Assembly: GCA_964016885.1 (NCBI GenBank)
Contig: OZ024741.1
Location: forward strand, 84,940,001-85,004,000
DNA length: 64,000 bases
Reading direction: 5' to 3'
Source of the DNA: Eledone cirrhosa
Lineage: Eukaryota
Shown here one piece after another: positions 9,461-62,850 of the stretch. Below the pieces are notes generated by a model, which was not told the DNA's origin, searched no databases, and saw nothing but the letters and a program-made list of their open reading frames with translations. Position numbers and translations under genes: made by a program. Numbering within the stretch: the first letter of the stretch is position 1; every line of letters starts with the position of its first letter.

Positions 9461-11988
9461 GAGTTCTTGAAATTCTTAATAACTATTATTGTTGGTCGGG
9501 GAGGGAAGAGCAATGTCTTTAAACACTTCCAGAGCCTTTATGATTTGTGGGAGGGATGAAGAGCGATTTCTTCAAACTAGAAACGTAACTGGATTGCTAG
9601 TAATAGAATTAACTCTGCTAAAGATACCCAAGGTCCAGATGACGAGACTAAACTGACCAACGAATGAAATGTTCCAAAAACAACTAAGCCAACCCTCAGG
9701 AAGGATCAAAGAAAATCTTGTTCCATTGGTCTTTCCATTGCTGATACTACCTGTAGGCCGCATTTACTAGAGAAAGCGTCGTTATGTATTTTCTTGTGAT
9801 TGGAGGCGGGAATTGAACTCAGAAGGCAGTCGAAACAGCCAACACAAAGTATCCGGTCCAACACTTGAACAATTCTGTCAATCCCCTCCCCTTGACAGAT
9901 AACCTATGTATCGACTCCTCCCAACAGAGTCAAACTGATACTAAAATAAGACAAAACAGTAGTTTATAAAAGACTAAAGCGTTGATTTGTCTTAACTTAC
10001 TTCTAGTTTCACTTCTACCATGAATTGTAATTAAATCCCCAAATCAGCTTCAACTACATATTTTTACAATGCTACATATAAACTACACAATCTTTTCTCA
10101 TCAGGCTTTATATTAATTAAACATTATCTCCTACTAATTAATTATGTAAACGCAAACTACTGCATAAAATTATCAGCCGTATATTAATTTAACATTAAAT
10201 TCACTAAAATTAATCTTGTATACAGCAGAAACTCAGCATAATGTTAACAGACTTATGTTAATTAATGTAATATTAACAGCTTATAATTAGTCACTTATAT
10301 GTGTAAAGCACAGATTAATGCAATACATTAACAGTTCAATTTATTATTAGCCTTTTTAAATTAACCTAGTAAAGAACTGGAAATGTTACATAATATTAGT
10401 TTCGTGTGAATTAATTTAAATTTAGCATTCTTGAACATTAAGCGCATTAAATCTAGCAAAAGTAGTGTGAATTAATAGTAATATAGAAATATTCAACATA
10501 AAAACATTTCCTCATTGGAAATTCCAAATTTCCACCTGGAATCCTGAAATTTACCACCTGTTAAATGTTCTTCATGGTCAAAGTTCTAGATAAACAAAGA
10601 AAAGATTCGATATTTGTGGCTGGAAGGCTTTTGAGCATATCTTCGCTCTTAATCGGACGCCAAACAACAACGAATCTGTGAATCTCTAGGCTAAAGTGGA
10701 AGTCAGTGCAGAGTCGCACGAGCTGCTACTTGAAATTGATTTTAAAATCAATGCATAGATTCAGCAATGTAGTCATACACTGATATATATATATATATAT
10801 AGGTAATATTTATTAAAATAACATAAAATATAGGTTATATATATAGGTAATGAATTTGACAAGTCAAGAATGATCGTGTCTGAAGAAGGATTTTAGATCT
10901 TTTGTGGAGAGCCCATAAGATGGTTGGAGGTGTGGGATCTAATGCTTTTTGTACAAGAATTGCCTACTCGGATATATATTACGAAATTCAACTACACTAC
11001 ACAGTTCCAAGGCATTACCCGGATTCAAAGATTCTTCAATGTGTAGGTTTAGCAATCCACTCTACCCTCGAGCGCTCTACGTACTATACTAAACAAGAAC
11101 CGTAACCATCTAGGTTGGCTCCCCACAAGATTGCTTATTCTTTGTAAAATATCCTCACTCCTTCCTGCCGGACATAATCAAAGCTTCTTTTTCAAAAAGC
11201 CCAAGATGTTGTCAAGTGTCTGAGATGGAGCACATGACATTAAAATGGAAGCTTATAGGAAAAGCCGATCTTTTCAACCTAAAACATAAAATCATTCCCC
11301 TAAAGTAAATGAACTCACGCCTTTCTAGTCAGATCTTGTTTATTCGGTAATATCTCTTTCCGCAAACACACAAACTCATTCCAAAACAAACTAAGGCATA
11401 AAATGTTTTAGATCGTCCAATAAACACAAAATATAGACATGACATAAATCATCACCCTTCTCTTCTCATTTAAGAAAATAGCAGGTTAACTCCCCATTTC
11501 ACTCCTTCTACAAACCTACTTTTTAACGATTATCACCCCTAACGTTCGAACTCATTTATAAACGAAGGACGAAACTGATGAGCCAGGAGAGTCTTTGATA
11601 CCCCAAACTAGTGAAACACGTGTGTTCGGATGATGTATTGCTGATGTAATAAAATATTATATATGTGTGTGTGTATACTTACCATTAAAAATGTTGACCA
11701 CTCAGCTGAAATCTGACAAGGGAACTGACCTCGGTAGTGAAAACAACATATTGGTCTGTTCCCTTGTCTTTAATTGGCTTTCAGGGTATTATATATTTCA
11801 GGGTAATTTATGTTTGATGCTAAATCAGTTGCTGGCTTTCAAAGTATTTTTATGGTTTAGTCAAAGGGAGATCAGCAGCAACTTTCTTTGTCTTCTGAAG
11901 TACGTGTGTATGCGTTGATATTCTCTCTCTTTTCACTCAGTGTCTTTATCTTGCATTGCATTACCAATATAACGTTATTGTATAAAAC

Positions 11989-21081: not shown

Positions 21082-21204
21082 TATAGGAAAATATTCAAGA
21101 CCCCGACGAGAGATCAAACCGTTTCGACGGCTATTTCTTTCTGGTCCAGAAATAGCCGTCGAAACGGCTTGAGCTCTGCCGTCGAGGTCTTGAACATTTT
21201 CCTA
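21082..21204. repeat. Imperfect fold-back, arms about 55 bp, loop 9 nt
   Basis: ataggaaaatattcaagacc...cgacggctatttct / agaaatagccgtcg...ggtcttgaacattttcctat. Confidence 0.85.
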
Positions 21205-21282
21205 TTACCCACTCTACTAACCTAAGTATTGAGTACTCTGGTGCGTTATGGTCCATCTGGTTCCTTACCACACTTCCTTCGT

Positions 21283-21382
<100 letters not shown>

Positions 21383-22763
21383 TATGTACACGTACATACA
21401 TATATGTATACCGACGCACAGTAGTATGTATATATATATATATATACATACATGCACACATATATATATGCACGTATGGATTCACCGAATATTTATTACA
21501 ATGCTCGGTGTGTTTGTAAACAAACATCCCGTATTAAGCCGTAGTGTCTAGCAACCACCGTTGCTCGTTTGTTCAACACTGACAAAGGAACGCTGTACTA
21601 GTTTCAAGCTTGTTAGCTATCGTCAGCAACGTATACCTTCCTGCCAGATTGTTGAACGTATATACTTACCTTATGCATATTAACGGCTGAGTAGCCCAAT
21701 TTGCATATCGAGTGGGTTAATCGGCCGGGTGCACCGAAAACGATAAACGGAAAAAATGAAACGATATTTCATTTCCCACTCTTAGTACGGCTGTTACTTA
21801 AATATAAGTATGTACACGTACATACATATATGTATACCGACGTACAGTAGTATGTATATATATATATATACATACATGCACACATATATATATGCACGTA
21901 TGGATTCACCGAATATTTATTACAATGCTCGGTGTGTTTGTAAACAAACATCCCGTATTAAGCCGTAGTGTCTAGCAACCACCGTTGCTCGTTTGTTCAA
22001 CACTGACAAAGGAACGCTGTACTAGTTTCAAGCTTGTTAGCTATCGTCAGCAACGTATACCTTCCTGCCAGATTGTTGAACGTATATACTTACCTTATGC
22101 ATATTAACGGCTGAGTAGCCCAATTTGCATATCGAGTGGGTTAATCGGTCGGGTGCACCGAAAACGATAAACGGAAAAAATGAAACGATATTTCATTTCC
22201 CACTCTTAGTACGGCTGTTACTTAAATATAAGTATGTACACGTACATACATATATGTATACCGACGTACAGTAGTATGTATATATATATATATACATACA
22301 TGCACACATATATATATGCACGTATGAATTCACCGAATATTTATTACATGCTCGGTGTGTTTGTAAACAAACATCCCGTATTAAGCCGTAGTGTCTAGCA
22401 TATTACCTTATGCATATTAACGGCTGAGTAGCTAACAAGCTTGAAACTAGTACAGCGTTCCTTTGTCAGTGTTGAACAAACGAGCAACGGTGGTTGCTAG
22501 ACACTACGGCTTAATACGGGATGTTTGTTTACAAACACACCGAGCATTATAATAAATATTCGGTGAATCCATACGTGCATATATATATGTGTGCATGTAT
22601 GTATATATATATATACATACTACTGTACGTCGGTATACATATATGTATGTACGTGTACATACTTATATTTAAGTAACAGCCGTACTAAGAGTGGGAAATG
22701 AAATATCGTTTCATTTTTTCCGTTTATCGTTTTCGGTGCACCCGACCGATTAACCCACTCGAT

Positions 22764-22771
22764 ATGCAAAT
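22764..22771 (+). promoter_or_regulatory. Octamer motif ATGCAAAT upstream of the HHR in array 1 units
   Basis: Perfect POU/Oct consensus; also upstream of both minus-strand HHRs; function untested. Confidence 0.45.
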
Positions 22772-22838
22772 TGAGCTACTCAGCCGTTAATATGCATAAG
22801 GTAAGTATATACGTTCAACAATCTGGCAGGAAGGTATA

Positions 22839-22879
22839 CGTTGCTGACGATAGCTAACAAGCTTGAAACTAGTACAGCG
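22839..22879 (+). ncRNA. Type I minimal hammerhead (array 1 representative)
   Basis: CGUUG-CUGACGA-uAGCU aaca AGCUu-GAAA-CUAG-UA-CAGCG; predicted cut after 22874; stem I extends through GUUCAACA/UGUUGAAC. Confidence 0.8.
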
Positions 22880-23145
22880 TTCCTTTGTCAGTGTTGAACA
22901 AACGAGCAACGGTGGTTGCTAGACACTACGGCTTAATACGGGATGTTTGTTTACAAACACACCGAGCATTGTAGTAAATATTCGGTGAATCCATACGTGC
23001 ATATATATATGTGTGCATGTATGTATATATATATATATACATACTACTGTACGTCGGTATACATATATGTATGTACGTGTACATACTTATATTTAAGTAA
23101 CAGCCGTACTAAGAGTGGGAAATGAAATATCGTTTCATTTTTTCC

Positions 23146-23180
<35 letters not shown>

Positions 23181-24494
23181 TAAGTTAAAAATGTACATCT
23201 ACATATGCATACTGAAATACTAGTATGCATATGAATACACACACGTATACATATGTAGATGTACCAAGTCTTTCACTGGTTACTTTACTGTGAGTATCCA
23301 GCTATTCTGTATGTAAACACACAGACAAACCGGTTTTTAGAGTCATACTGGTTTTTGAGGAAACACCTTTCCTCTATTCTCCAGAAAGCCAGACAAGGAA
23401 TATTGAACTAGTTTCGTTGTTGTTACAACTCATCAGCAATATTTACCTATCTACCGGCCTTTCTGGAGAATCGTAAAAGCACATATCGTTATATGCTTTT
23501 TCTATGAAAATTAGTAGTGGGCAGACTAATTTGCATAGAGTGTGAGTACGTACCGGTTGAACGGAGACGATAAAAACAAATAACGAAACGAAATTAAATT
23601 TCGTTTCGTTTGTAACTCACTTTTGTATGACTGACGCTTAAACAATTAAGTTAAAAATGTACATCTACATATGCATACTGAAATACTAGTATGCATATGA
23701 ATACACACACGTATACATATGTAGATGTACCAAGTCTTTCACTGGTTACTTTACTGTGAGTATCCAGCTATTCTGTATGTAAACACACAGACAAACCGGT
23801 TTTTAGAGTCATACTGGTTTTTGAGGAAACACCTTTCCTCTATTCTCCAGGAAGCCAGACAAGGAATATTGAACTAGTTTCGTTGTTGTTACAACTCATC
23901 AGCAATATTTACCTATCTACCGGCCTTTCTGGAGAATCGTAAAAGCACATATCGTTATATGCTTTTTCTATGAAAATTAGTAGTGGGCAGACTAATTTGC
24001 ATAGAGTGTGAGTACGTACCGGTTCAACGGAGACGATAAAAACAAATAACGAAACGAAATTAAATTTCGTTTCGTTTGTAACTCACTTTTACGATTCTCC
24101 AGAAAGGCCGGTAGATAGGTAAATATTGCTGATGAGTTGTAACAACAACGAAACTAGTTCAATATTCCTTGTCTGGCTTCCTGGAGAATAGAGGAAAGGT
24201 GTTTCCTCAAAAACCAGTATGACTCTAAAAACCGGTTTGTCTGTGTGTTTACATACAGAATAGCTGGATACTCACAGTAAAGTAACCAGTGAAAGACTTG
24301 GTACATCTACATATGTATACGTGTGTGTATTCATATGCATACTAGTATTTCAGTATGCATATGTAGATGTACATTTTTAACTTAATTGTTTAAGCGTCAG
24401 TCATACAAAAGTGAGTTACAAACGAAACGAAATTTAATTTCGTTTCGTTATTTGTTTTTATCGTCTCCGTTCAACCGGTACGTACTCACACTCT

Positions 24495-24502
24495 ATGCAA
24501 AT
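24495..24502 (+). promoter_or_regulatory. Octamer motif ATGCAAAT upstream of the HHR in array 2 units
   Basis: Perfect consensus, 92 nt before CTGATGA; function untested. Confidence 0.45.
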
Positions 24503-24587
24503 TAGTCTGCCCACTACTAATTTTCATAGAAAAAGCATATAACGATATGTGCTTTTACGATTCTCCAGAAAGGCCGGTAGATAGGTA

Positions 24588-24632
24588 AATATTGCTGATG
24601 AGTTGTAACAACAACGAAACTAGTTCAATATT
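24588..24632 (+). ncRNA. Type I minimal hammerhead (array 2 representative)
   Basis: AAUAUUG-CUGAUGA-GUUGU aaca ACAAC-GAAA-CUAG-UU-CAAUAUU; stem I extends with AUUCUCCAGAAAGGCC/GGCUUYCUGGAGAAU. Confidence 0.9.
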
Positions 24633-25852
24633 CCTTGTCTGGCTTCCTGGAGAATAAAGGAAAGGTGTTTCCTCAAAAACCAGTATGACTCTAAAAACCG
24701 GTTTGTCTGTGTGTTTACATACAGAATAGCTGGATACTCACAGTAAAGTAACCAGTGAAAGACTTGGTACATCTACATATGTATACGTGTGTGTATTCAT
24801 ATGCATACTAGTATTTCAGTATGCATATATAGATGTACATTTTTAACTTAATTGTTTAAGCATCAGTCATACAAAAGTGAGTTACAAACGAAACGAAATT
24901 TAATTTCGTTTCGTTATTTGTTTTTATCGTCTCCGTTCAACCGGTACGTACTCACACTCTATGCAAATTAGTCTGCCCACTACTAATTTTCATAGAAAAA
25001 GCATATAACGATATGTGCTTTTACGATTCTCCAGAAAGGCCGGTAGATAGGTAAATATTGCTGATGAGTTGTAACAACAACGAAACTAGTTCAATATTCC
25101 TTGTCTGGCTTTCTGGAGAATAGAGGAAAGGTGTTTCCTCAAAAACCAGTATGACTCTAAAAACCGGTTTGTCTGTGTGTTTACATACAGAATAGCTGGA
25201 TACTCACAGTAAAGTAACCAGTGAAAGACTTGGTACATCTACATATGTATACGTGTGTGTATTCTTATGCATACTAGTATTTCAGTATGCATATGTAGAT
25301 GTACATTTTTAACTTAATTGTTTAAGCGTCAGTCATACAAAAGTGAGTTACAAACGAAACGAAATTTAATTTCGTTTCGTTATTTGTTTTTATCGTCTCC
25401 GTTCAACCGGTACGTACTCACACTCTATGCAAATTAGTCTGCCCACTACTAATTTTCATAGAAAAAGCATATAACGATATGTGCTTTTACGATTCTCCAG
25501 AAAGGCCGGTAGATAGGTAAATATTGCTGATGAGTTGTAACAACAACGAAACTAGTTCAATATTCCTTGTCTGGCTTTCTGGAGAATAGAGGAAAGGTGT
25601 TTCCTCAAAAACCAGTATGACTCTAAAAACCGGTTTGTCTGTGTGTTTACATACAGAATAGCTGGATACTCACAGTAAAGTAACCAGTGAAAGACTTGGT
25701 ACATCTACATATGTATACGTGTGTGTATTCATATGCATACTAGTATTTCAGTATGCATATGTAGATGTACATTTTTAACTTAATTGTTTAAGCGTCAGTC
25801 ATACAAAAGTGAGTTACAAACGAAACGAAATTTAATTTCGTTTCGTTATTTG

Positions 25853-25930
<78 letters not shown>

Positions 25931-30855: not shown

Positions 30856-35033
<4,178 letters not shown>

Positions 35034-37337: not shown

Positions 37338-39358
37338 GTCTGGCTGGACTACAGGAAAGCTTTCGATTCTGTTCCCCACTCTTGGGTTATAGAGACCCTC
37401 CAACTTGCTAAAGTCCCAGACATTATTCTCAGAGCCATAGAGAGGCTGTCTTCTTCTTGGGCTACTATCCTAAGGTTAAAGACAGAGAGGGAGGACTATT
37501 TTCACTGATAAAATAAAATATTGCAGGGGTATATTTCAGGGGGACAGTCTCTCTGTGATATTATTCATCTTGTCATTAAACCCCTTGTCCTTTCTGCTCA
37601 AGAAATGTGAGGGATACATCATTGGCTCACAGGAGGACAGAAATACGAACCTAACCCATAATTTCTTTGTGGACGATCTGAAACTCTATGCCAAGAACAT
37701 GGATGGGATGAAGAAAAATCTTGACCTGGTTACAACGTTCTCAAGGGATATAGGAATGGAGTTTGGCCAAGACAAATGCTCATACATGACTGTAAAGCGG
37801 GGAAAAACAACAACCCAGTCTAGCAACATTGTCATCAATGGCCTAACTGTTTCATCGATATCTGATGAGGACTGCTACAGATACCTGGGGATAGATGAGA
37901 ACATATCCTATAATGGTATCTGTAATAAAGAACGCGTAACCAAGGAATAATACACCCCGATTAAGAAAGATCTGGTCATCGGAACTCTCTGCGCAAAACA
38001 ATACAGTGGCTCACAATGTGTTTGCTGTGCCTGTCCTAACACCAACGTTTGGAATACTCAATTGGACGAAAAACGAAATCCGAGCAGTTGATGTTGGAAC
38101 TCGAAAAATACTGAACAACACCGAAAACTTCCACATCAACAGTGACATAGACCGCCTTTACTTGAAACGTAAGCAGGGAGGCAGAGGCCTAACATCAGCC
38201 CAGACAACATTTGAATGTCGCATCATATCTCTCCGACAACATCTACGAACCTCGAAGCGTAGGAGCCCGTTTCTCGAGCAAGTCTATCTGCATGAAACAG
38301 GTAAGATCATGAGAGTTGGGAAGGGATTCCTTGAGAGATATTCCCTGTGTGATAATCAAAAACTCACACCCAGGGATGTCGCTCAGCAGTATCGCAGTGA
38401 ATTCATGGATGAAAAACTGCATACCTATCAGCAAAAAATCATGCATAAATATGTTGCCAGGAAGCTCCAGAGTGAGAGTAATATAGATAAGGAAAGAAGT
38501 CTATCTTGGACCAACAACCGCTATATTGGCTCCCACTTTGAAGGATACGCTTTTGCAATCCAGGAACAGGAGATTAGCACGAAATACCTGATTCACAAAA
38601 GAGATACGGATGCAGGCAAAGCACCTAGATGTGATAACAAGTGCAGACTCTGCAGAACTAACATCGAGGATGTCACCCACTTCATCAGCAGCTGTCCAAA
38701 GATGTCATCGCGGTACTATCTACCTATGAGGCATGATGTAGTGGCCAAAACACTGTACAATGCAATTCGTAAAAAAGATAGCCGCGATAATAAACACATT
38801 AAAAGCTACAACAATGTGGAAGACATCCATGTACATAATATGAAAGAGTACTGGTGGAATGTTCCAGTAAAAACCCCAATAAAATGAAGGCATAGCAGAC
38901 CAGATATTATGATATGGGACAGGGAGAAGAAAACATGCACAGTAGTGGAAATTAGCTGCTCAGCAGATGCCAATATAATATCAAAGATTAGTGAAAAGGA
39001 GAATATTTATGCAGAGCTGATGAGAAATCTGCAGATACTCCACCCTGATTACACCTTCAGATTTATGCCTGTGATTATTGGGGCACTGGGGTATGTTAGT
39101 AACTGCCTCAATACAAATCTTGAGAAGCTAGGCTTCACAGGAACAGAAAGAACACAACTAGTTAGGAAATTACAAGTACAATCCATTAATGGAACAGTAA
39201 AAATATGTAAAACATTCCAAAAATGTTGCATCTAATAACTGCATATACACATGTACAGATACAAAGCATATACGCATGCACACATACAACTCAAAACATA
39301 CACATCTACACATACAATAACATCCATATCTACACATGCATGTGTAAAACCAGAAGAA
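37338..39358 (+). mobile_element. 5'-truncated R4/Dong-clade retrotransposon (RT, CCHC, RLE)
   Basis: WLDYRKAFDSVPHSW, QGDSLS, FFVDDLKLY, CRLC..EDVTHFISSC, RHD, RPDIMIWD...VEISC; flanked by (CATA)n at both ends. Confidence 0.9.
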
Positions 39359-40767: not shown

Positions 40768-43004
40768 TATTTCTTTATTAGCCACAAGGATGCACAAGAA
40801 AAGGGGACAAAACAAAGACATGCCGGGGATTTTACATACAATCGTGTAAAAATATGAAGCAAACAAATATAACAATCGAAATCCCTAATGGGGAGGAGGC
40901 GCCACAAATGTGTTGTTTAATGCCCCGTAGATAGAACCCTCAACTTCAGGAGCGTGTTGTGCAAGTGCTCCTTTCTTCATTTTGCTCTCTTCTTCAACCT
41001 ACAGGTTTATATACAGAGAAGGCCCAATCACTCGGGCTATTTTTGTCATTTTCACCCACCTTTCAGTAAATTTACTGGGATGCAGTGCCTCTCTCTCCAC
41101 TCTGATTCTCCTTCTAAAGTGGTACCTAAAGAAGGGAATGACTTGTTGTTCGGAGAGAAAGGCATCTGTCCTCAGTCCTGTCAATCTTGTCCACCATATA
41201 CCCTCTTTCACTATAGCCACTATACAGAGGAAGACCGCCTCTCTTTCGTTTTCGAAGGAGGTTGGCGGTTTGATCATTACTATGGACTCGGCAGTCAACT
41301 GCATGTTCCCCATACGCGACAGCAGTTGTTCTGCGTAGTTCCACAGGTCGGTTACGCCCGGGAGTGTACAATTGCGTGCAAGACAGTTTCAATGTCCTGC
41401 CCGCATCTTGGATACGTCCTCTTGGAAGGATCCCTGACTGTAGATCTTGTCACGAACTGATAGAGCTCCTCGGTAGCACTGCCAGGCCAGGGACCTCTGG
41501 AAGTTGTCCATAGGTCCCGGGCGGAAAGTCCTACCAAACAGACAGGTGAGTTCGTCGTCTTCGACGCCTAGAGTCTCTCCGAGCACGTCGTTGCCCTTGA
41601 GACGTACTAACCCTCTATAGAATGTCGAAGTGGAGTCTCCGATGATTGCCGTGCCCGCTTGACAGAAGAGTGTGCTCGCCTGAGCGCATTCAATGTGCCA
41701 GGCGCCCATCTTCTTCGGTCTCCGCTTGACCCAAAACTGCAGCTCCGTCAGCGAGACAAGTTGCGGGAAGGCCTGTCTCACAAACGGTTCCCACAAAGGT
41801 TGGAGGTCGGTGGTCGGTGATGAATACCTGTAGATGCCGTAGCCTCAGCGCATGCTTGCGCATCATCAGCCACGGCATTCACAGCCCTCCGTTGGAAGGG
41901 TGCTGACAGCAGACGGATCTCCACACCAGTGAAGCCTGCTTCTTCAAAAGGAACTGGAAGAGCATGTGTTCCATCTTGGTGAAGTGTTCACGGGGACAAG
42001 GCACGACGGTCAAGCGCTAGTAGATGACGGACGCTATGAAAGTTTGCCACCTCCGCTCGACCTTTCAAGGATAGTTTGCACTCTGCCCACTTCTGAGTGA
42101 GCGCAAATACCTTGGCCGTCACCTCGTTCCAGTTTTTCTCCACCTGGCGTTCCGCATCGAACTAGACCCCAAGCAATTTCACCGGTCCGTCCGTCCAACG
42201 TCCGACGACGCTGTCGGACGGCATCGGTTTGGCTGTCCACGTTCCGAGTTGCAAACCGACAGACTTGTCCGGGTTCAGTTTTGCTCCTGTGAGCCTTTCG
42301 TATTCCTACAGTAAGTTGTCGATTGCCCCGATTTTCGAGGTTTCCGACACCATTACTGTCACGTCGTCGGCATAAGCAGACGTCACTTACCGCAGTCCCG
42401 GTTCCAACGGGATGGCCTGCAGCAGCTCCAACTTCAGCATTATTGACTCTAGAGTCAGTACGTACAGAATGGAGGAGAGAGGGCATCCCTGTCGGATGGA
42501 ACGCGTGATTGCGAATGGCTCCGATAGGTAGTCGTTGACCTTGATCACTGAGCAGGTGTTGGTGTGCATTGCGGCGATCCAGCCTCTGAAGGCGCGTCCG
42601 AAACCGGCCGCCTTGAGAACCGCTTCCAAGTATCGATGGTCGACCCTATTGAACGCTTTAGACTGATCTAAATTCATCAAAGCCCCACCGAAGCCGGGTT
42701 TACAGCCCACCCTCTCTATGGTGTATCGCATGATGTGGAGGTTGTCGTGTATAGACCTGGTCGGGATTGCACACGTTTGCGCTTTCTCTACCAGGTTCTC
42801 GACGACAAGCGCCAACCTCGCTGCCAACATCTTGGCCAAAATCTTTAACTCATATAGTTCGACCCCCTTGTTCTCGTCTTTCCTGATCAGCGTTACTACG
42901 CCCCTGCCTGCAGAACTGGGAATTCTGCCGTTCTGCTGCCAGTTGCTGTAGACAGCCTCAAGGACGCCAGAGAACAAGTCCGGCATGCCTATGTAAAACT
43001 CAGG
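40768..43004 (-). mobile_element. Tx1/L1-group LINE, 5'-truncated and frameshifted
   Basis: KILAKMLAARL, NLDQSKAFNRVDH, IRQGCPLS, AYADD, TGAKLN; C-terminal PRCGQDIETVLH; AATAAA near the 3' end. Confidence 0.85.
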
Positions 43005-43051
43005 TAGATGGATAGATAGATACACACACACACACATTTCTTACTCTCTCG

Positions 43052-57125: not shown

Positions 57126-58637
57126 AACATAGTTATACTAGTTGAGGCCATTTGTAAGCTTCAACATTGGAGCCGGGCGTGGCCACACAACAACCCCAGC
57201 GTCAGGCGAACCATGGGTATCATGTTTGCACACCTGGAGTCTCTGTGTGTACATATTTCATGTCCTTTTTTCCTTATTCTCTGATTATATACCTACTGTT
57301 GTTTTTTAGGAATTTTTGTCCCGTTCTTTTAGTATTATGTTCTCTGTATGTGTTCTCGGTTTCTTATCTGCTTGTTCCTGTCCATACTTTCGCTTCCCGT
57401 AACTCTCTTCCATAGTCTAAGAGCCATTTTAATAGTATTGATGCCACTGTAGTTAAAACAGAATTCTATTGTGGTTAGCCGTTTTTCTGCACTGTAATTA
57501 TTGCTAGCCTTGTGCCTTAGAATGATAGAGAGAACTGAATTAACTGTGCATGTATTTGTTTATATATATAAATACCCATCGATATTTCAGTCCCATTTTT
57601 CGCTTCCTTGTTTCAACGAACTACTATTGTGGTTAGTTTATTTTTCATGGAAGCGTGGCCTTTTCTTGTTGCCGCCGTCACCGTGGTGAGCTCATCACTG
57701 GTGTTGTTGTTGTTATTGTTATTGGTGTTACCACTGTCTGTCTCCCGGTTAATTGGGTGTTCACTGCCATTGGCTTGATACTAATATCAATGACACCACC
57801 ACTACTACGACGAAAGAGGTAGGTGATGGGCGGTGTTAATGTTTGTTGCCGTTGCTATTGTTGTTGTTGATATATATAGTCATGGTGATTGATACCACCA
57901 ATTCTGTGTATCCACCTACCTCAGAACCTCTTTTATTGCTTTGATGTTATCGTTGTTATTGTCGGCGGGGGATACCATCACTACGACTGCTACGGCCTGT
58001 GTACACGACGCTGGTCTGTGTTTTTGCTGTTGTTGTCGTTGTTGTTGTTGTTGCTGTTGAAGCTGTTTCCTTTAGCAGCTGTTTTCGTTATTGTTGTCAG
58101 TAGAGTAGTAATATCACTACGACTGTTGCGGCCAGTGTGGACGATATTGGTCGGCGTGTTACTGTTATTGTCACTATTGTTGTTGTCGTCGTCGTTGTTG
58201 TTGTTGTTGTTATCTATAGGTGGTCGTCAACAAAGTGTATACCCCTACACTCCATCAGAGATCCATTTATTGCTTCCACTGGGCTTTGGCTACACACAGT
58301 TTTTCCGCTTTTTCCTTTATAACTTTTTTTAGGAAACACCACGGCTGGAAAACCCTTCAAGGAACTCATATGTCTGCTGAGCACACAAGCAACAGGACGT
58401 GTGTTTTTTCCTGCGAGCGACATATCAAACATATCGATAATTCATCTGAGGATACCGTTCTCATAATCAACATCAAATGCATGAAGGGCATCCCGATTGC
58501 ATGGAGAACCGTTGAAATAATTATAATGATTAAATGATATATGTAACCTCAGCATCTTATTTTGTTATTTTATATATATATATATATAAATCAGAAAAGA
58601 AGAGTGACACGGTTTGCTATACAAAAAAGGTTTTTAA

Positions 58638-58758
58638 TCTCATTGCTGACAATTGTTTCTCTGAACTGGTAGGTCTAGAGATCGCTACCCGCTTGTTTTC
58701 GCGTCATTCGATCACCAATACATAGTTGTAACCAGTCAATTCATCAGAGCTTGTGAAA
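58638..58758 (-). ncRNA. Type I hammerhead with 81-nt stem II domain in a PLE pLTR
   Basis: UUUCA caa GCU-CUGAUGA-auUGACUGGU...ACCAGUuCAga-GAAA-CAAUUG-UC-AGC aa UGAGA. Confidence 0.7.
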
Positions 58759-60135
58759 ATGAAAGGAATATACAGGAATGGCTTCTATATATAGTAATGG
58801 CATTCAATCAGAACAATAACAACAATACTAACAATGCTAGCAATAAATTACTTGAAATAATCACAACATCAACCTAAGTAAGAAACATAGTATATCTACG
58901 ACTTTATCGTGTAAAACTTGCTTACATGAGGCAGATGTATGAAATCGACATGTAAAAGCTGTCATAGGGTGTATTGTATATAGTGTAGAGATAAGCCGGT
59001 GGCTTTAAACAATGTACCATTTCCTTTACTGTAGGTCTGGTGACTGTAAGAATTATTTATTATCTGACAGATGAAATATTTATCATTGTAGTGAGGATAG
59101 TAATATGTGTGGTGTGAGGTGTGTTCAATATTTATGTGGTCTATATTAGATGAAGGGATTGTTAGTTCGAATCAGACATTGCTGTGGTATAGAATTAAGA
59201 AGGCTAGAATTTACTTAATGATTATAGTTCTGTGGTGGTCCGTGTAATATTGTGGATATCATATGTTGAATGCTAAGTTATGTCGGTTCGATTCACGGAG
59301 GCTTAAATCTTGTGAATTTAGTGGCGATCCTGTGTCTGCAGAAAATTGATCTTTCTAACTTGTTGTTGAGTAGCCTTTTTACATTCCTAAGGATATATAG
59401 TAATTCCAGATCACAGAGCCTACAGTAGGACATACCGGTATTGTTAGCCCTTGCGGCCGACAACCTCGTCCAGTTGATATTGTAGTTGGTGTTATTGTCC
59501 TTAAGTTCCCAGATTTTTTTGGCGAGGGTTGTAGAACCATAAGTGCACGGTTCTTCATCGAGTGTCTGTGCACATACCATCTTTTTTTAAAAGTACCCGC
59601 GGTGGATCCAATGTAATGCCAAGTGGAGTTGCCCGAGTTGACCGTACACATGTATACTAGCCTCGAATCAAGGCATCTATTCGCCAATGGGCACATATCC
59701 GGTAGGTGACAGTTGCAGTTTGAGGTGTTATTCCGTGCAGCTTCCACACTGCTGTTTTGTACACTGCTATAAGTGGGTTGTGATTTATGCCCGTTGAGGT
59801 TTTGGTGCTGCGTGCGTGTATGTGTTTGCAGTTGTGATACTCTGATGTGATTATGTATATAATTTGGTGCTATGTTGCACATAGGTGGGGCGGATTCCCT
59901 AGATGTATTTCTGTGGTTGATCTTCCGTATGTGTGATTCTATATTTGTAGCCGTAGAGTATGAGAGTTTTATAGTTTTTCTATTGAGTATTTTATGATAT
60001 CTGTGGGATATAGGGAAGTGTTTATCTATTAGTTTAAAGAACGTAGAAGGCAGTCTAGCTTTTACAGAGGAGTTGCATTTCAGAATACTACTACATCACT
60101 TTCCCCCTGTTATAATTGTAGTCAGCATGCTTTCT

Positions 60136-60189
<54 letters not shown>

Positions 60190-60447
60190 TCCCTCCTTAA
60201 CTTCTGTATTAACCTACCTATTATATTGCTACTATGTTAATGTTATCTTATACTTGTATGCTATTGATGATGTGAAAGCTAAACAACCCCATGATTCGAA
60301 CTAACAATCCCTTCATCTAATATAGACCAAATAAATTTTGAGCCCACCTCACACCACAAATATTACTATCCGCACTACAATAATAAATATTTCATCTGTC
60401 AGATAATAAATACGCTCTTTATAGCTAGGTACTTAAACAACCAGAGC

Positions 60448-61753
60448 ATGGAAAGATTAAGAAAAAACATTAGAACATTTTTCAAAAAACGAGGCCTATG
60501 TATTACCTACGAACTGAACCATAAAAAAGTAAACTTTCTAGATGTGAATCTAAATCTAAATACGGGATTAATAGAACCCTTCCACAAAATTAATGAGAAT
60601 CTGGCCTACATTAGTTATAACTCAAACCACCCCAAATCCATAATCAGATCCATAGCATGTAGTATATCCCTTAGAATATCCCGCTTATCATCAAACCTAG
60701 AAATGTTTAATGAACATGCTAACTATTATAAACGCGGCATTACATAGGGCCGGACATAAAGATAAGCTGCAGTTTATAACGAATAAAGACAACTTAAACA
60801 AACCTACTAACAATGACACCAACCGCTCACACAAAAATAGAGGTAATGGGACTAGACATAGAGTTAGGCACGTAGCATCTAGAGTAAGTGGTCCAAACAC
60901 CAATAATGTAAACCCTAGAAACAATAGAAGAATCAGAGAAAAAAAATACCTGTGGTTCAATCCAATCTTCAACTCCTCTATAAAAACTAGACTGCCTTCT
61001 ACGCTCTTTAAACTAATAGATAAACACTTCCCTATATCACACAGATATCATAAAATACTCAATAGAAAAACTATAAAACTTTCATACTCTACGGCTGCAA
61101 ATATAGAATCACACATACGCAAGATCAACCCCAGAAATACCTCTAGGGAATCCGCCCCACCTATGCGCAACATAGCACCAAATTATAAACATAAACACAT
61201 CACAGTATCACAACCGCAAACGCATACAAGCACGCAGCACCAAAACCTCAACGGGCATAAATCACAACCCACTTATAGCGGAGTACAAAACAGCAGTGTG
61301 GAAGCTGCACGGAATAACACCTCAAACTACAACTGTCACCTACCGGATAGGTGCCCATTGGCGAATAGATGCCTTGATTCGAGGCTAGTATACATGTGTA
61401 CGGTCAACTCGGGCAACTCCACTTGGCATTACATTGGATCCACCGCGGGTACTTTTAAAAAAAGATGGTATGTGCACAGACACTCGATGAAGAACCGTGC
61501 ACTTATGGGTTCTACAACCCTCGCCAAAAGAATCTGGGAACTTAAGGACAATAACACCAACTACAATATCAACTGGTCGAGGTTGCCGGCCGCAAGGGCT
61601 AACAATACCGGTATGTCCTACTGTAGGCTCTGTGATCTAGAATTACTATATATCCTTAGGAATGTAAAAAGGCTACTCAACAACAAGTTAGAAAGATCAA
61701 TTTTCTGCAGACACAGGATCGCCACTAAATTCACAAGATTTAAGCCTCCGTGA
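60448..61753 (+). pseudogene. PLE RT thumb plus GIY-YIG endonuclease, one frameshift near 60730
   Basis: ORFs 60448-60747 and 60710-61753. Confidence 0.85.
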
Positions 61754-62850
61754 ATCGAACCGACATAACTTAGCATTCAACATATGATATCCACAATATT
61801 ACACGGACCACCACAGAACTATAATCATTAAGTAAATTCTAGCCTTCTTAATTATATACCACAGTAATGTCTGTAAGTATCTTATCAACGCATAAATATA
61901 TCCCTTCTCAGCTGCTGAACCTAAATCCAAGTACATTTCAGAATACTACTACATCACCTTCCCCCGGTTATAATTGTAGTTAGCATCTTTTCTCTTTATA
62001 TATATATATATTTTTTTTTATTGCCTCCTTAACCTCTGTATTAACTTACCTATTATATTGCTACTCTGTTAATGTTATCTTATACATGTATGTTATTGAT
62101 GATGTGAAAGCTAAACAACCCCATGATTCGAACTAACAATCCCTTCATCTAATATAGACCAAATAAATATTGAACTCACCTCACACCACAAATATTACTA
62201 TCCTCACTACAATGATAAATATTTCATGTCAGATAATAAATAATTCTTACGGTCACCAGACCTACAGTAAAGGAAATGGTACATTGTCTAAAGCCACCGG
62301 CTTATCTCTACACTATATATAATACACCCATGACAGCTTTTACATGTCAATTTCATACATCTGCCTCATGTCAGCTAGTTTTAGACACTAAAGTCGTAGA
62401 TATACTATGTTTCTTATTTAGATTGATGTTGTGATTATTTCAAGTAATTTATTGCTAGCATTGTTAGTATTGTTGTTATTGTTCTGATTGAATGCCATTA
62501 CTATATATAGAAGCCATGCCTGTATAATCCTTTCATTCTCACAAGCTCTGATGAATTGACTGGTTACAACTATGTATTGGTGATAGAATGACGCGAAAAC
62601 AGGCGGGTAGCGATCTCTAGACCTACCAGTTCAGAGAAACCATTTTGTATAGCAAACGGTGTCACTCTTCTTTCCTGATTTATCATTACTCCAAGTGTTA
62701 ACAACACAGAAATCACCGCGTACTCGCAGCATCACTATGGAAACGCCTTGTTGAGTCAAACATAGCCAAGCGTTGATATCATCCACTACTCGGAGTACTC
62801 TAACTGGACTACATCTAAGTGGACTACCTATAACAATAATCTGTTATCCC

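Follow-up and report, generated by a model that had tools for sequence, protein, structure and literature searches.

What kind of element has left six hammerhead ribozyme motifs between positions 23177 and 25858 of a 64-kb window (the whole stretch of Eledone cirrhosa DNA that was analyzed), and by what route did it arrive there? An earlier note had described this region, array 2, as an array with six hammerheads and a 466-bp unit and had read it as a viroid-like circular RNA. The six hammerhead cores were all found, and the claimed period of 466 with near-identical units was recovered (~99% identity). The description stands but is incomplete: an inversion at 24086-24090 and two fixed ends had gone unnoticed, and these are the most informative features of array 2. 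We conclude that array 2 represents a single insertion of a dispersed, noncoding, hammerhead-bearing 466-nt repeat, an animal non-LTR retrozyme and not a viroid. The assignment follows from the fact that the family is genome-encoded in thousands of copies with target duplications and ends of the retrotransposon type (PMC7229834).

Array 2 is not a single tandem array; it contains an inversion and consists of two arms placed back to back, with the sense 3' ends pointing outward on both. The left arm (23173..24090, minus strand) comprises ~1.96 units with 2 hammerheads and has its outer end at site A (m230-233) and its inner end at m248, where m positions are monomer coordinates numbered from the predicted cleavage site. 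The right arm (24086..25859, plus strand) comprises ~3.8 units with 4 hammerheads and spans m393 to site B (m300-302). At the inversion junction (24086..24090), a 5-nt overlap is compatible with both arms and constitutes microhomology. One full monomer between predicted cleavage sites lies at 24160..24625 (plus strand), and further full monomers lie at 24626-25091 and 25092-25557 (plus) and at 23406-23871 (minus). The segment from site A to site B, here called the tail, is ~69-75 nt long and contains a 13-bp hairpin; it is present at the right terminus (25790..25859, plus strand) and missing from the left one. Both target flanks are (TA)n, at 23149..23176 on the left, where the run separates arrays 1 and 2, and at 25857..25926 on the right.

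Array 1 (21373..23151) is a separate insertion of a sister 424-nt family and has the same anatomy as array 2. Its minus arm (21376-22432) terminates at its own site A and its plus arm (22429-23151) at its own site B, with a 4-nt junction overlap between them. The 424-nt family is referred to as family A and the 466-nt family as family B; their units are 68.5% identical. The earlier note had called the two arrays homologous and adjoining across TA, and both points are borne out: the units are colinear, with 281/410 aligned positions identical and a score of 295 versus at most 124 in 100 shuffles, and the TA run at 23149-23176 lies between the arrays. Its reading of two diverged sister families in one TA tract is likewise supported, the families being dispersed rather than confined to a single locus. 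Close by, at 21083-21282, a near-perfect 120-bp hairpin, extended on its 3' side, is flanked by TA runs; it belongs to a dispersed repeat for which a first look gave 3,676 candidates, the top copies being ~91% alike. Broken reverse transcriptase frames of LINE type were recognized by eye at 316-2940, 37480-39235, and 40999-43040 of the window.

The predicted ribozyme is a type I hammerhead motif (24588..24632, plus strand; predicted cut after 24625) made up of stem I with a 7-bp proximal part, CUGAUGA, a 5-bp stem II with an AACA loop, GAAA, and a minimal palindromic helix III. The CUGAUGA cores lie at 24129, 24595, 25061, and 25527 on the plus strand and at 23902 and 23436 on the minus strand, with predicted cleavage after 24159, 24625, 25091, and 25557 (plus) and after 23872 and 23406 (minus). 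The core pattern occurs on the sense strand only, that is, in a single polarity. The "perfect" core of the earlier note is canonical in the core itself, but it comes with a minimal helix III, of 1-2 bp on palindromic ACUAGU, and with GUU as the cleavage triplet. The GUU triplet and the minimal helix III may weaken the predicted cleavage. In frogs, 8 of 9 predicted retrozymes are reported to be without cleavage in vitro (bioRxiv 10.64898/2026.07.22.740005), and in the axolotl the form with a short palindromic helix III is described as acting as a double hammerhead (PMC7229834).

The motif matched Rfam HH9 at 38 bits (E 6e-8), short of the gathering score of 52; a scan of the whole 64-kb window at the gathering level found nothing, and a search of the unit for other ribozyme families found none up to an E value of 1. 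Covariation was assessed over 11 variants picked from 15 that were seen at least three times in the fetched loci. In this set, 94% of cells are paired and 6/17 pairs change on both sides, the covariation score is reached by 0/500 shuffles, and slid structures pair 35-51%; since the 11 sequences are interrelated, this result is support and not a probability. The stem pairs covary as RNA, G-U pairs included.

The 466-nt unit has 35% GC, and 66% of it is paired as a predicted circle. Circular folding of the monomer, a check proposed in the earlier note, gave -154 kcal/mol versus -93 ± 6 in 40 dinucleotide shuffles (z -9.9), and the 7-bp proximal stem I, the distal extension, and both hairpins named there are present in the minimum free energy (MFE) structure. 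In this predicted structure, hammerhead stems I and II are formed and the hammerhead is left free. The predicted circular fold is highly paired in both polarities. The longest sense-strand ATG open reading frame (ORF) has 19 codons, the longest stop-free run around the circle has 57-60 codons, and the unit contains no ORF for a reverse transcriptase (RT) or a GIY-YIG endonuclease; the element as a whole is composed of tandem units with no LTR structure. The term "viroid-like circular RNA" stands as a likeness of shape only, because the hammerhead is of single polarity and the unit is genome-encoded in thousands of copies.

An snRNA-type internal promoter, as in newt satellite 2, had been suggested by a conserved octamer in the unit and was rejected: the full octamer was found in 0/5 U2 upstream regions, which gave weak, AT-rich alignments only, and a subfamily without the octamer occupies 7 loci. 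These are L218 (G000:C1:30831609-30840868) and six other loci, a young 468-nt subfamily of 71 units in which three clustered A>G changes abolish the octamer. Its arms are long (7+13, 17+8), and a single base difference was counted over all 22 of the unit hits in L218. The clustered A>G trio in L218 had also been considered as a trace of private editing and is instead a shared subfamily trait.

The exact 29-nt core pattern occurs in 5,217 copies in the 3.0-Gb genome and the superfamily pattern in 37,912, with 0 for the reversed control in each case. The best unit copies show 98-100% identity and are spread over many chromosome-sized contigs, and among the first 100 listed cores the clusters with both strands were ordered minus then plus in 10/10 cases. 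The retrozyme family is real and recently active, and with ~38,000 hammerhead cores the superfamily makes up a sizeable share of a 3-Gb animal genome. The copy number, which the earlier note had asked for, shows with 5,217 exact cores that array 2 is not a single-locus satellite. More generally, array 2 might be read as satellite DNA of the ordinary sort, or as an artefact of assembly, in which a fold-back inversion arose by chance. This reading would fit those loci that have grown long (~40 kb on contig C12) and that carry higher-order patterns, but it is refuted by the fixed pair of ends and the target duplications found among thousands of dispersed copies. Against an artefact, contigs of run X1, which may be dependent on the assembly, pass from the unit into (TA)n at identical positions (24387, 24392, and 24461).

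Some insertions have grown. The one at G000:C12:20397211-20435792 has expanded to a satellite-like array of ~40 kb with recurring deleted units, and satellite-like growth is also seen in L147 (at least 19 units) and L235/L236 (~37 units). Some arrays hold 17-32 units in one orientation. L227 and L230/231 display period-2 and period-3 variant patterns, and arm length is for that reason not a count of RT rounds; the patterns indicate local duplication, and long arms may have arisen partly after insertion. Within single loci, an 18-nt duplication ending at site A is present in two inner units of L031 (3768-4735), and a (TA)n run lies within the helix III palindrome of L049 (3211-3300). Run X4 yielded one self-closing contig of 496 nt, and tandem DNA yields such closure as readily as does a circle.

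The two outer ends are the most regular feature of the insertions. In family B, site A (m227-233) lies in the loop of a small AT-rich hairpin and site B (m300-302) in a U-rich stretch following the 13-bp hairpin. Family A ends at homologous places, ~m218 and m274-277, so that sites A and B stand beside the same hairpins in both families despite the 68.5% identity, and its tail measures ~59 nt, against ~69-75 nt in family B. Ends were compared in a ranked sample of family B (the top 40 loci, window included), in a sample of 31 family A loci, and in position-based samples taken from the start of contig C1. The 40 ranked family B loci comprised 30 with one A and one B end (A+B), 3 with a B end and an odd end, 6 that were single-armed, and 1 complex locus; A was on the left in 14/30 of the A+B loci. 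The 31 position-based clusters of family B comprised 20 A+B, including 4 in which an arm of 12-16 nt was called by eye, 2 with one odd end, and 9 single. Family A contributed 10 A+B loci by script, 2 more through BLAST ends, and 3 with an odd end, the rest of the 31 being single, complex, or cut off; 3 of its 8 position-sampled loci were A+B, and the other 5 were too diverged or single-armed to call. Over both families, 65/73 two-armed loci are A+B, with 0 A+A and 0 B+B. Independent 50:50 choice of the ends would give this with a probability of ~2^-59, six hand calls already left out. Even in L050, whose arms are different haplotypes ~3% apart, the arms end at B and A. The pattern points to two ends that are not drawn independently and to a coupled, asymmetric complex.

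The same counts bear on whether these insertions could be DNA-level elements. Foldback elements have long inverted arms, a variable middle, and target duplications near 10 bp, and the retrozyme insertions recall them in all three respects; a Foldback- or MITE-like element moved by a transposase, with the hammerhead as a passenger, is thus conceivable, but we consider it highly improbable. It is disfavoured by the 65 A+B loci and zero identical-ended loci, since outer ends that always differ do not form a single terminal inverted repeat. Copies with one arm and a 5' truncation are common, the stems covary as RNA pairs with G-U included, and an RT-coding element in the window has the same anatomy.

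Targets and junctions are of a recurrent type. (TA)4 is present on both flanks in 41/44 loci, and interrupted flanks match across the insertion in 10/44 loci compared with 61/1,892 mismatched pairs (3.2%); the matched flanks, that is, the target duplications, are mostly 10-14 bp. In L061, L065, L209, and L037, the duplicated target unit appears to occur as more than one repeat on one or both sides, as if amplified during or after insertion. Junction overlaps of at least 3 nt were found in 10/33 family B loci versus 6.5% expected (P = 3e-5) and in 9/15 family A loci versus 7% expected.

The form of the template can be approached through the arms themselves. The cleavage site is crossed by 29/30 A arms and 27/30 B arms, and this total of 56/60 means that copying was from either a circle or a multimer that had not been cleaved. 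The inner arm ends are evenly spread, with 1/66 at the cleavage site (Kolmogorov-Smirnov [KS] P = 0.21); stacking of self-cleaved linear monomers was accordingly rejected as the usual route, since the inner ends are not clustered at that site. Template switching at the cleavage site may have occurred in mosaic loci. Unit divergence is 0.24% across the arms of one locus, 0.35% inside arms, and 2.68% between loci, and it is lower within the locus in 48/48 loci; long arrays carry much of the weight in this comparison, and in L050 the difference is very small. In 11/63 loci, some of them plainly mosaic, at least two subfamily sites are polymorphic. The window offers an example: the earlier note had reported the C variant for the three inner units of array 2 and the T variant for the outer three, which is correct, and this pattern together with a second private variant is incompatible with any single linear or circular template, so that template switching or later gene conversion is needed. 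These 11/63 polymorphic loci, L050, and the C/T pattern of array 2 are exceptions to a rule of one template per insertion.

It is possible, at somewhat less than even odds, that a monomeric circle templates both arms of an insertion in a twin rolling-circle reverse transcription. One Penelope-like RT-endonuclease dimer would occupy two fixed positions on one circle, separated by ~70 nt, each of its subunits would be tied to one strand of a staggered (TA)n cut, and the subunits would circle independently, up to tens of times, until the cDNA tips anneal. If this is true, the strict A+B rule is a read-out of an asymmetric dimer, and the insertions are the first direct genomic proof of the circle retrotransposition route for animal hammerhead RNAs. 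A circular RNA form is itself plausible by analogy with other animal retrozymes.

A second reading differs from this one in the template only and retains the same Penelope-like machinery and start sites: the template would be a linear multimer, transcribed from a donor array and left uncleaved, with no circle involved. We regard it as a real but rather doubtful alternative. Donor arrays are homogeneous (0.35% within arms), some run for 17-32 units in one direction, and haplotype sharing and read-through fit equally well. By eye, the register of the arms on one linear template gave 2 loci that fit +1, 1 that partly fits 0, and others that fit neither; mosaic L043 and L061 fit an A-arm start displaced by one unit downstream from that of the B arm, but L068 and the window's own array misfit that register. 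Unprocessed RNA is described as the main substrate of the anole Penelope-like element (PMC11167929), whereas known animal retrozymes are described as accumulating largely as monomeric circles (PMC7229834). A linear multimer would also require many successive hammerheads to stay uncut, and yet their stems are kept by compensatory change.

The variation among loci raises a further alternative, in which a viroid-like RNA replicates from RNA to RNA and the genomic copies are endogenized snapshots of an RNA population. The predicted circle is highly paired in both polarities, 24 haplotypes with block shuffling are found among 29 position-sampled loci, compensatory changes occur outside the ribozyme as well, and replication of this kind has been reported for a plant retrozyme (PMC9695139). 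We nevertheless hold it to be improbable. The hammerhead has a single polarity, and variation is mostly subfamily structure, with 46 shared versus 15 locus-private fixed variants, which many genomic donors can explain. An ADAR footprint was also rejected, the A>G strand bias being not significant relative to T>C (5:2 among private and 15:9 among shared variants).

Penelope-like elements have been proposed to move animal retrozymes on the grounds of co-occurrence and pLTR homology (PMC7229834), and a recent preprint states by its own account that there is little evidence on the retrozyme life cycle (bioRxiv 10.64898/2026.07.22.740005). The window contains a 5'-truncated Penelope-like element at 30917-34222, with a 687-aa RT plus GIY-YIG frame at 31037-33100, that sits in (TA)n. 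It has the inverted form, with a short inverted left arm and a tail of 34-39 nt at the left end only, and no canonical hammerhead core was seen in it; a Cys-rich linker in the predicted protein suggests that it belongs to the Neptune group. Relatives of the window's RT bear names associated with bivalves. The inverted form and the one-ended tail are shared by 5 other loci of this family in which both ends are visible (L086, L107, L110, L116, and L134). In published Penelope-like insertions, an inverted 5'-truncated copy, a tail of 30-40 bp that is often one-ended, and a microsatellite bias are described (PMC8557442), along with target duplications of 8-10 bp (PMC3846280). The anole enzyme, for which a dimer is predicted, is reported to cut and extend both strands in vitro, with two internal RT start sites delimiting the tail and with both start sites used on either strand (PMC11167929). 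Because those in vitro start sites show no strand difference, the strict A+B pairing is not explained by PMC11167929.

A second Penelope-like family is present in the window at ~58590-62680, where its copies are inverted and broken and hammerhead-like cores lie at 58747 (minus) and 62548 (plus); its endonuclease-like frame (60701-61753) had no Pfam hit. More hammerhead-like cores, belonging to several repeated families, lie at 11575, 13213, 19735, 34561, 43660, 45194, 46188, 53821, 55168, 63060, and 63908. Some of these cores recur elsewhere within small inverted pairs (L102 and L106), and they are probably further nonautonomous elements of Penelope type.

The search for an autonomous partner used a GIY-YIG scan, 20 loci taken at greater length, BLAST of both units against them, and the 3' ends of five families. 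No autonomous partner of the retrozyme was found among the loci from the GIY-YIG search, and no pLTR homology to the retrozyme units was found in 50 of those loci (150/10,597 candidates scored). A Penelope-like family represented by L104, L105, L108, L111, and L117 carries a hammerhead core in its 3' region in which helix III is palindromic and the helix II base has a U-U mismatch; this family is a candidate partner whose predicted ribozyme resembles that of the retrozyme in form and not in sequence. Hybrid arms of retrozyme and Penelope were considered in L055 and L066 and rejected: the Penelope pieces resemble their nearest copies at 93-96%, the piece in L066 continues past its own pLTR motif, and the piece in L055 carries a deletion. 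In a further candidate hybrid, L210, the Penelope piece shows no recognizable end.

Taken together, we consider it probable that the retrozyme is mobilized in trans by a Penelope-type mechanism with two coupled starts, with cleavage and a circle as its usual life cycle, and we are more confident still of the Penelope-type enzyme class alone. By analogy with coral, mussel, and axolotl retrozymes, tandem transcripts would cut themselves, probably in the double-hammerhead form given the short palindromic helix III, and the monomers would be ligated to circles. A dimer of a Penelope-like RT/GIY-YIG protein would then bind the RNA around the two conserved hairpins and nick the TA-rich target on both strands with a stagger of ~10-14 bp. 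Of the two 3' ends, one would prime at site B and its partner at site A, through pairing over 1-3 nt. Both cDNAs would pass the ribozyme site, with a median of ~1.7 units and variable stops, and their tips would be joined by microhomology; local duplication would later lengthen some arrays. In both sister families, it is the insertions that bear the Penelope signature, and the 65-to-0 pairing rule constrains a Penelope mechanism that is poorly understood. The genome holds thousands of natural insertion products and provides a 466-nt substrate with two mapped start sites.

In L1 twin priming, two primers on one RNA produce an inverted 5' part and a join at microhomology, and the second priming site varies; the priming sites of the retrozyme are both fixed and are conserved between families. 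The element resembles the animal non-LTR retrozymes described from coral and mussel and from axolotl and newt satellite 2 (PMC7229834; bioRxiv 10.64898/2026.07.22.740005) in its tandem noncoding units with one type I hammerhead per unit, its low GC and self-paired predicted circle, its thousands of copies, its target duplications of >4 bp, and the co-occurrence of Penelope-like elements. Helix III is of the short palindromic kind found in axolotl HHR_Amex1, and family A has the U-U mismatch at the helix II base found in HHR_Amex2. At 466 nt, the unit exceeds the 170-400 nt given in PMC7229834 and falls within the 51-972 bp given in the preprint. Inverted two-arm insertions, two fixed ends, and a tail are not described in the main texts of these two reports. 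The published link to Penelope rests on co-occurrence and pLTR homology, the latter not found here in the searched loci. Our search, largely of open-access literature, found no description of inverted two-ended retrozyme insertions, although the supplements of the retrozyme papers may show inverted copies, and found no cephalopod retrozymes; the main text of an Octopus repeat annotation (PMC13282606) mentions neither ribozymes nor retrozymes.

Hammerhead viroids, as well as viroid-like satellite RNAs, resemble the retrozyme in size, in their predicted compact circular fold, and in having a hammerhead, but they are described as carrying ribozymes in both polarities and having no DNA stage (PMC9608096, PMC11210808), unlike the single-polarity, genome-encoded retrozyme. 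The closer likeness is to the endonuclease-bearing Penelope-like elements (Penelope/Poseidon, Neptune, and Naiad), with which the retrozyme shares the inverted 5'-truncated copy, the one-ended tail, two start sites, AT-rich or (TA)n targets, duplications of ~10 bp, and a type I hammerhead (PMC3846280, PMC8557442, PMC11167929). It differs from them in having no ORF, in arms that are several identical units long, in a tail of ~60-75 nt versus the published 30-40 nt, and in a hammerhead placed 228-302 nt upstream of the start sites. Nonautonomous Chlamys elements, MRC1 among them, are likewise noncoding Penelope passengers with multicopy head-to-tail insertions; they are found in green algae, their 3' ends resemble those of an autonomous partner, and they are described as without canonical hammerheads (PMC8557442). 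Among these systems, array 2 is a known kind of element, a non-LTR retrozyme, and what is new is an insertion anatomy with a Penelope signature, counted across loci.
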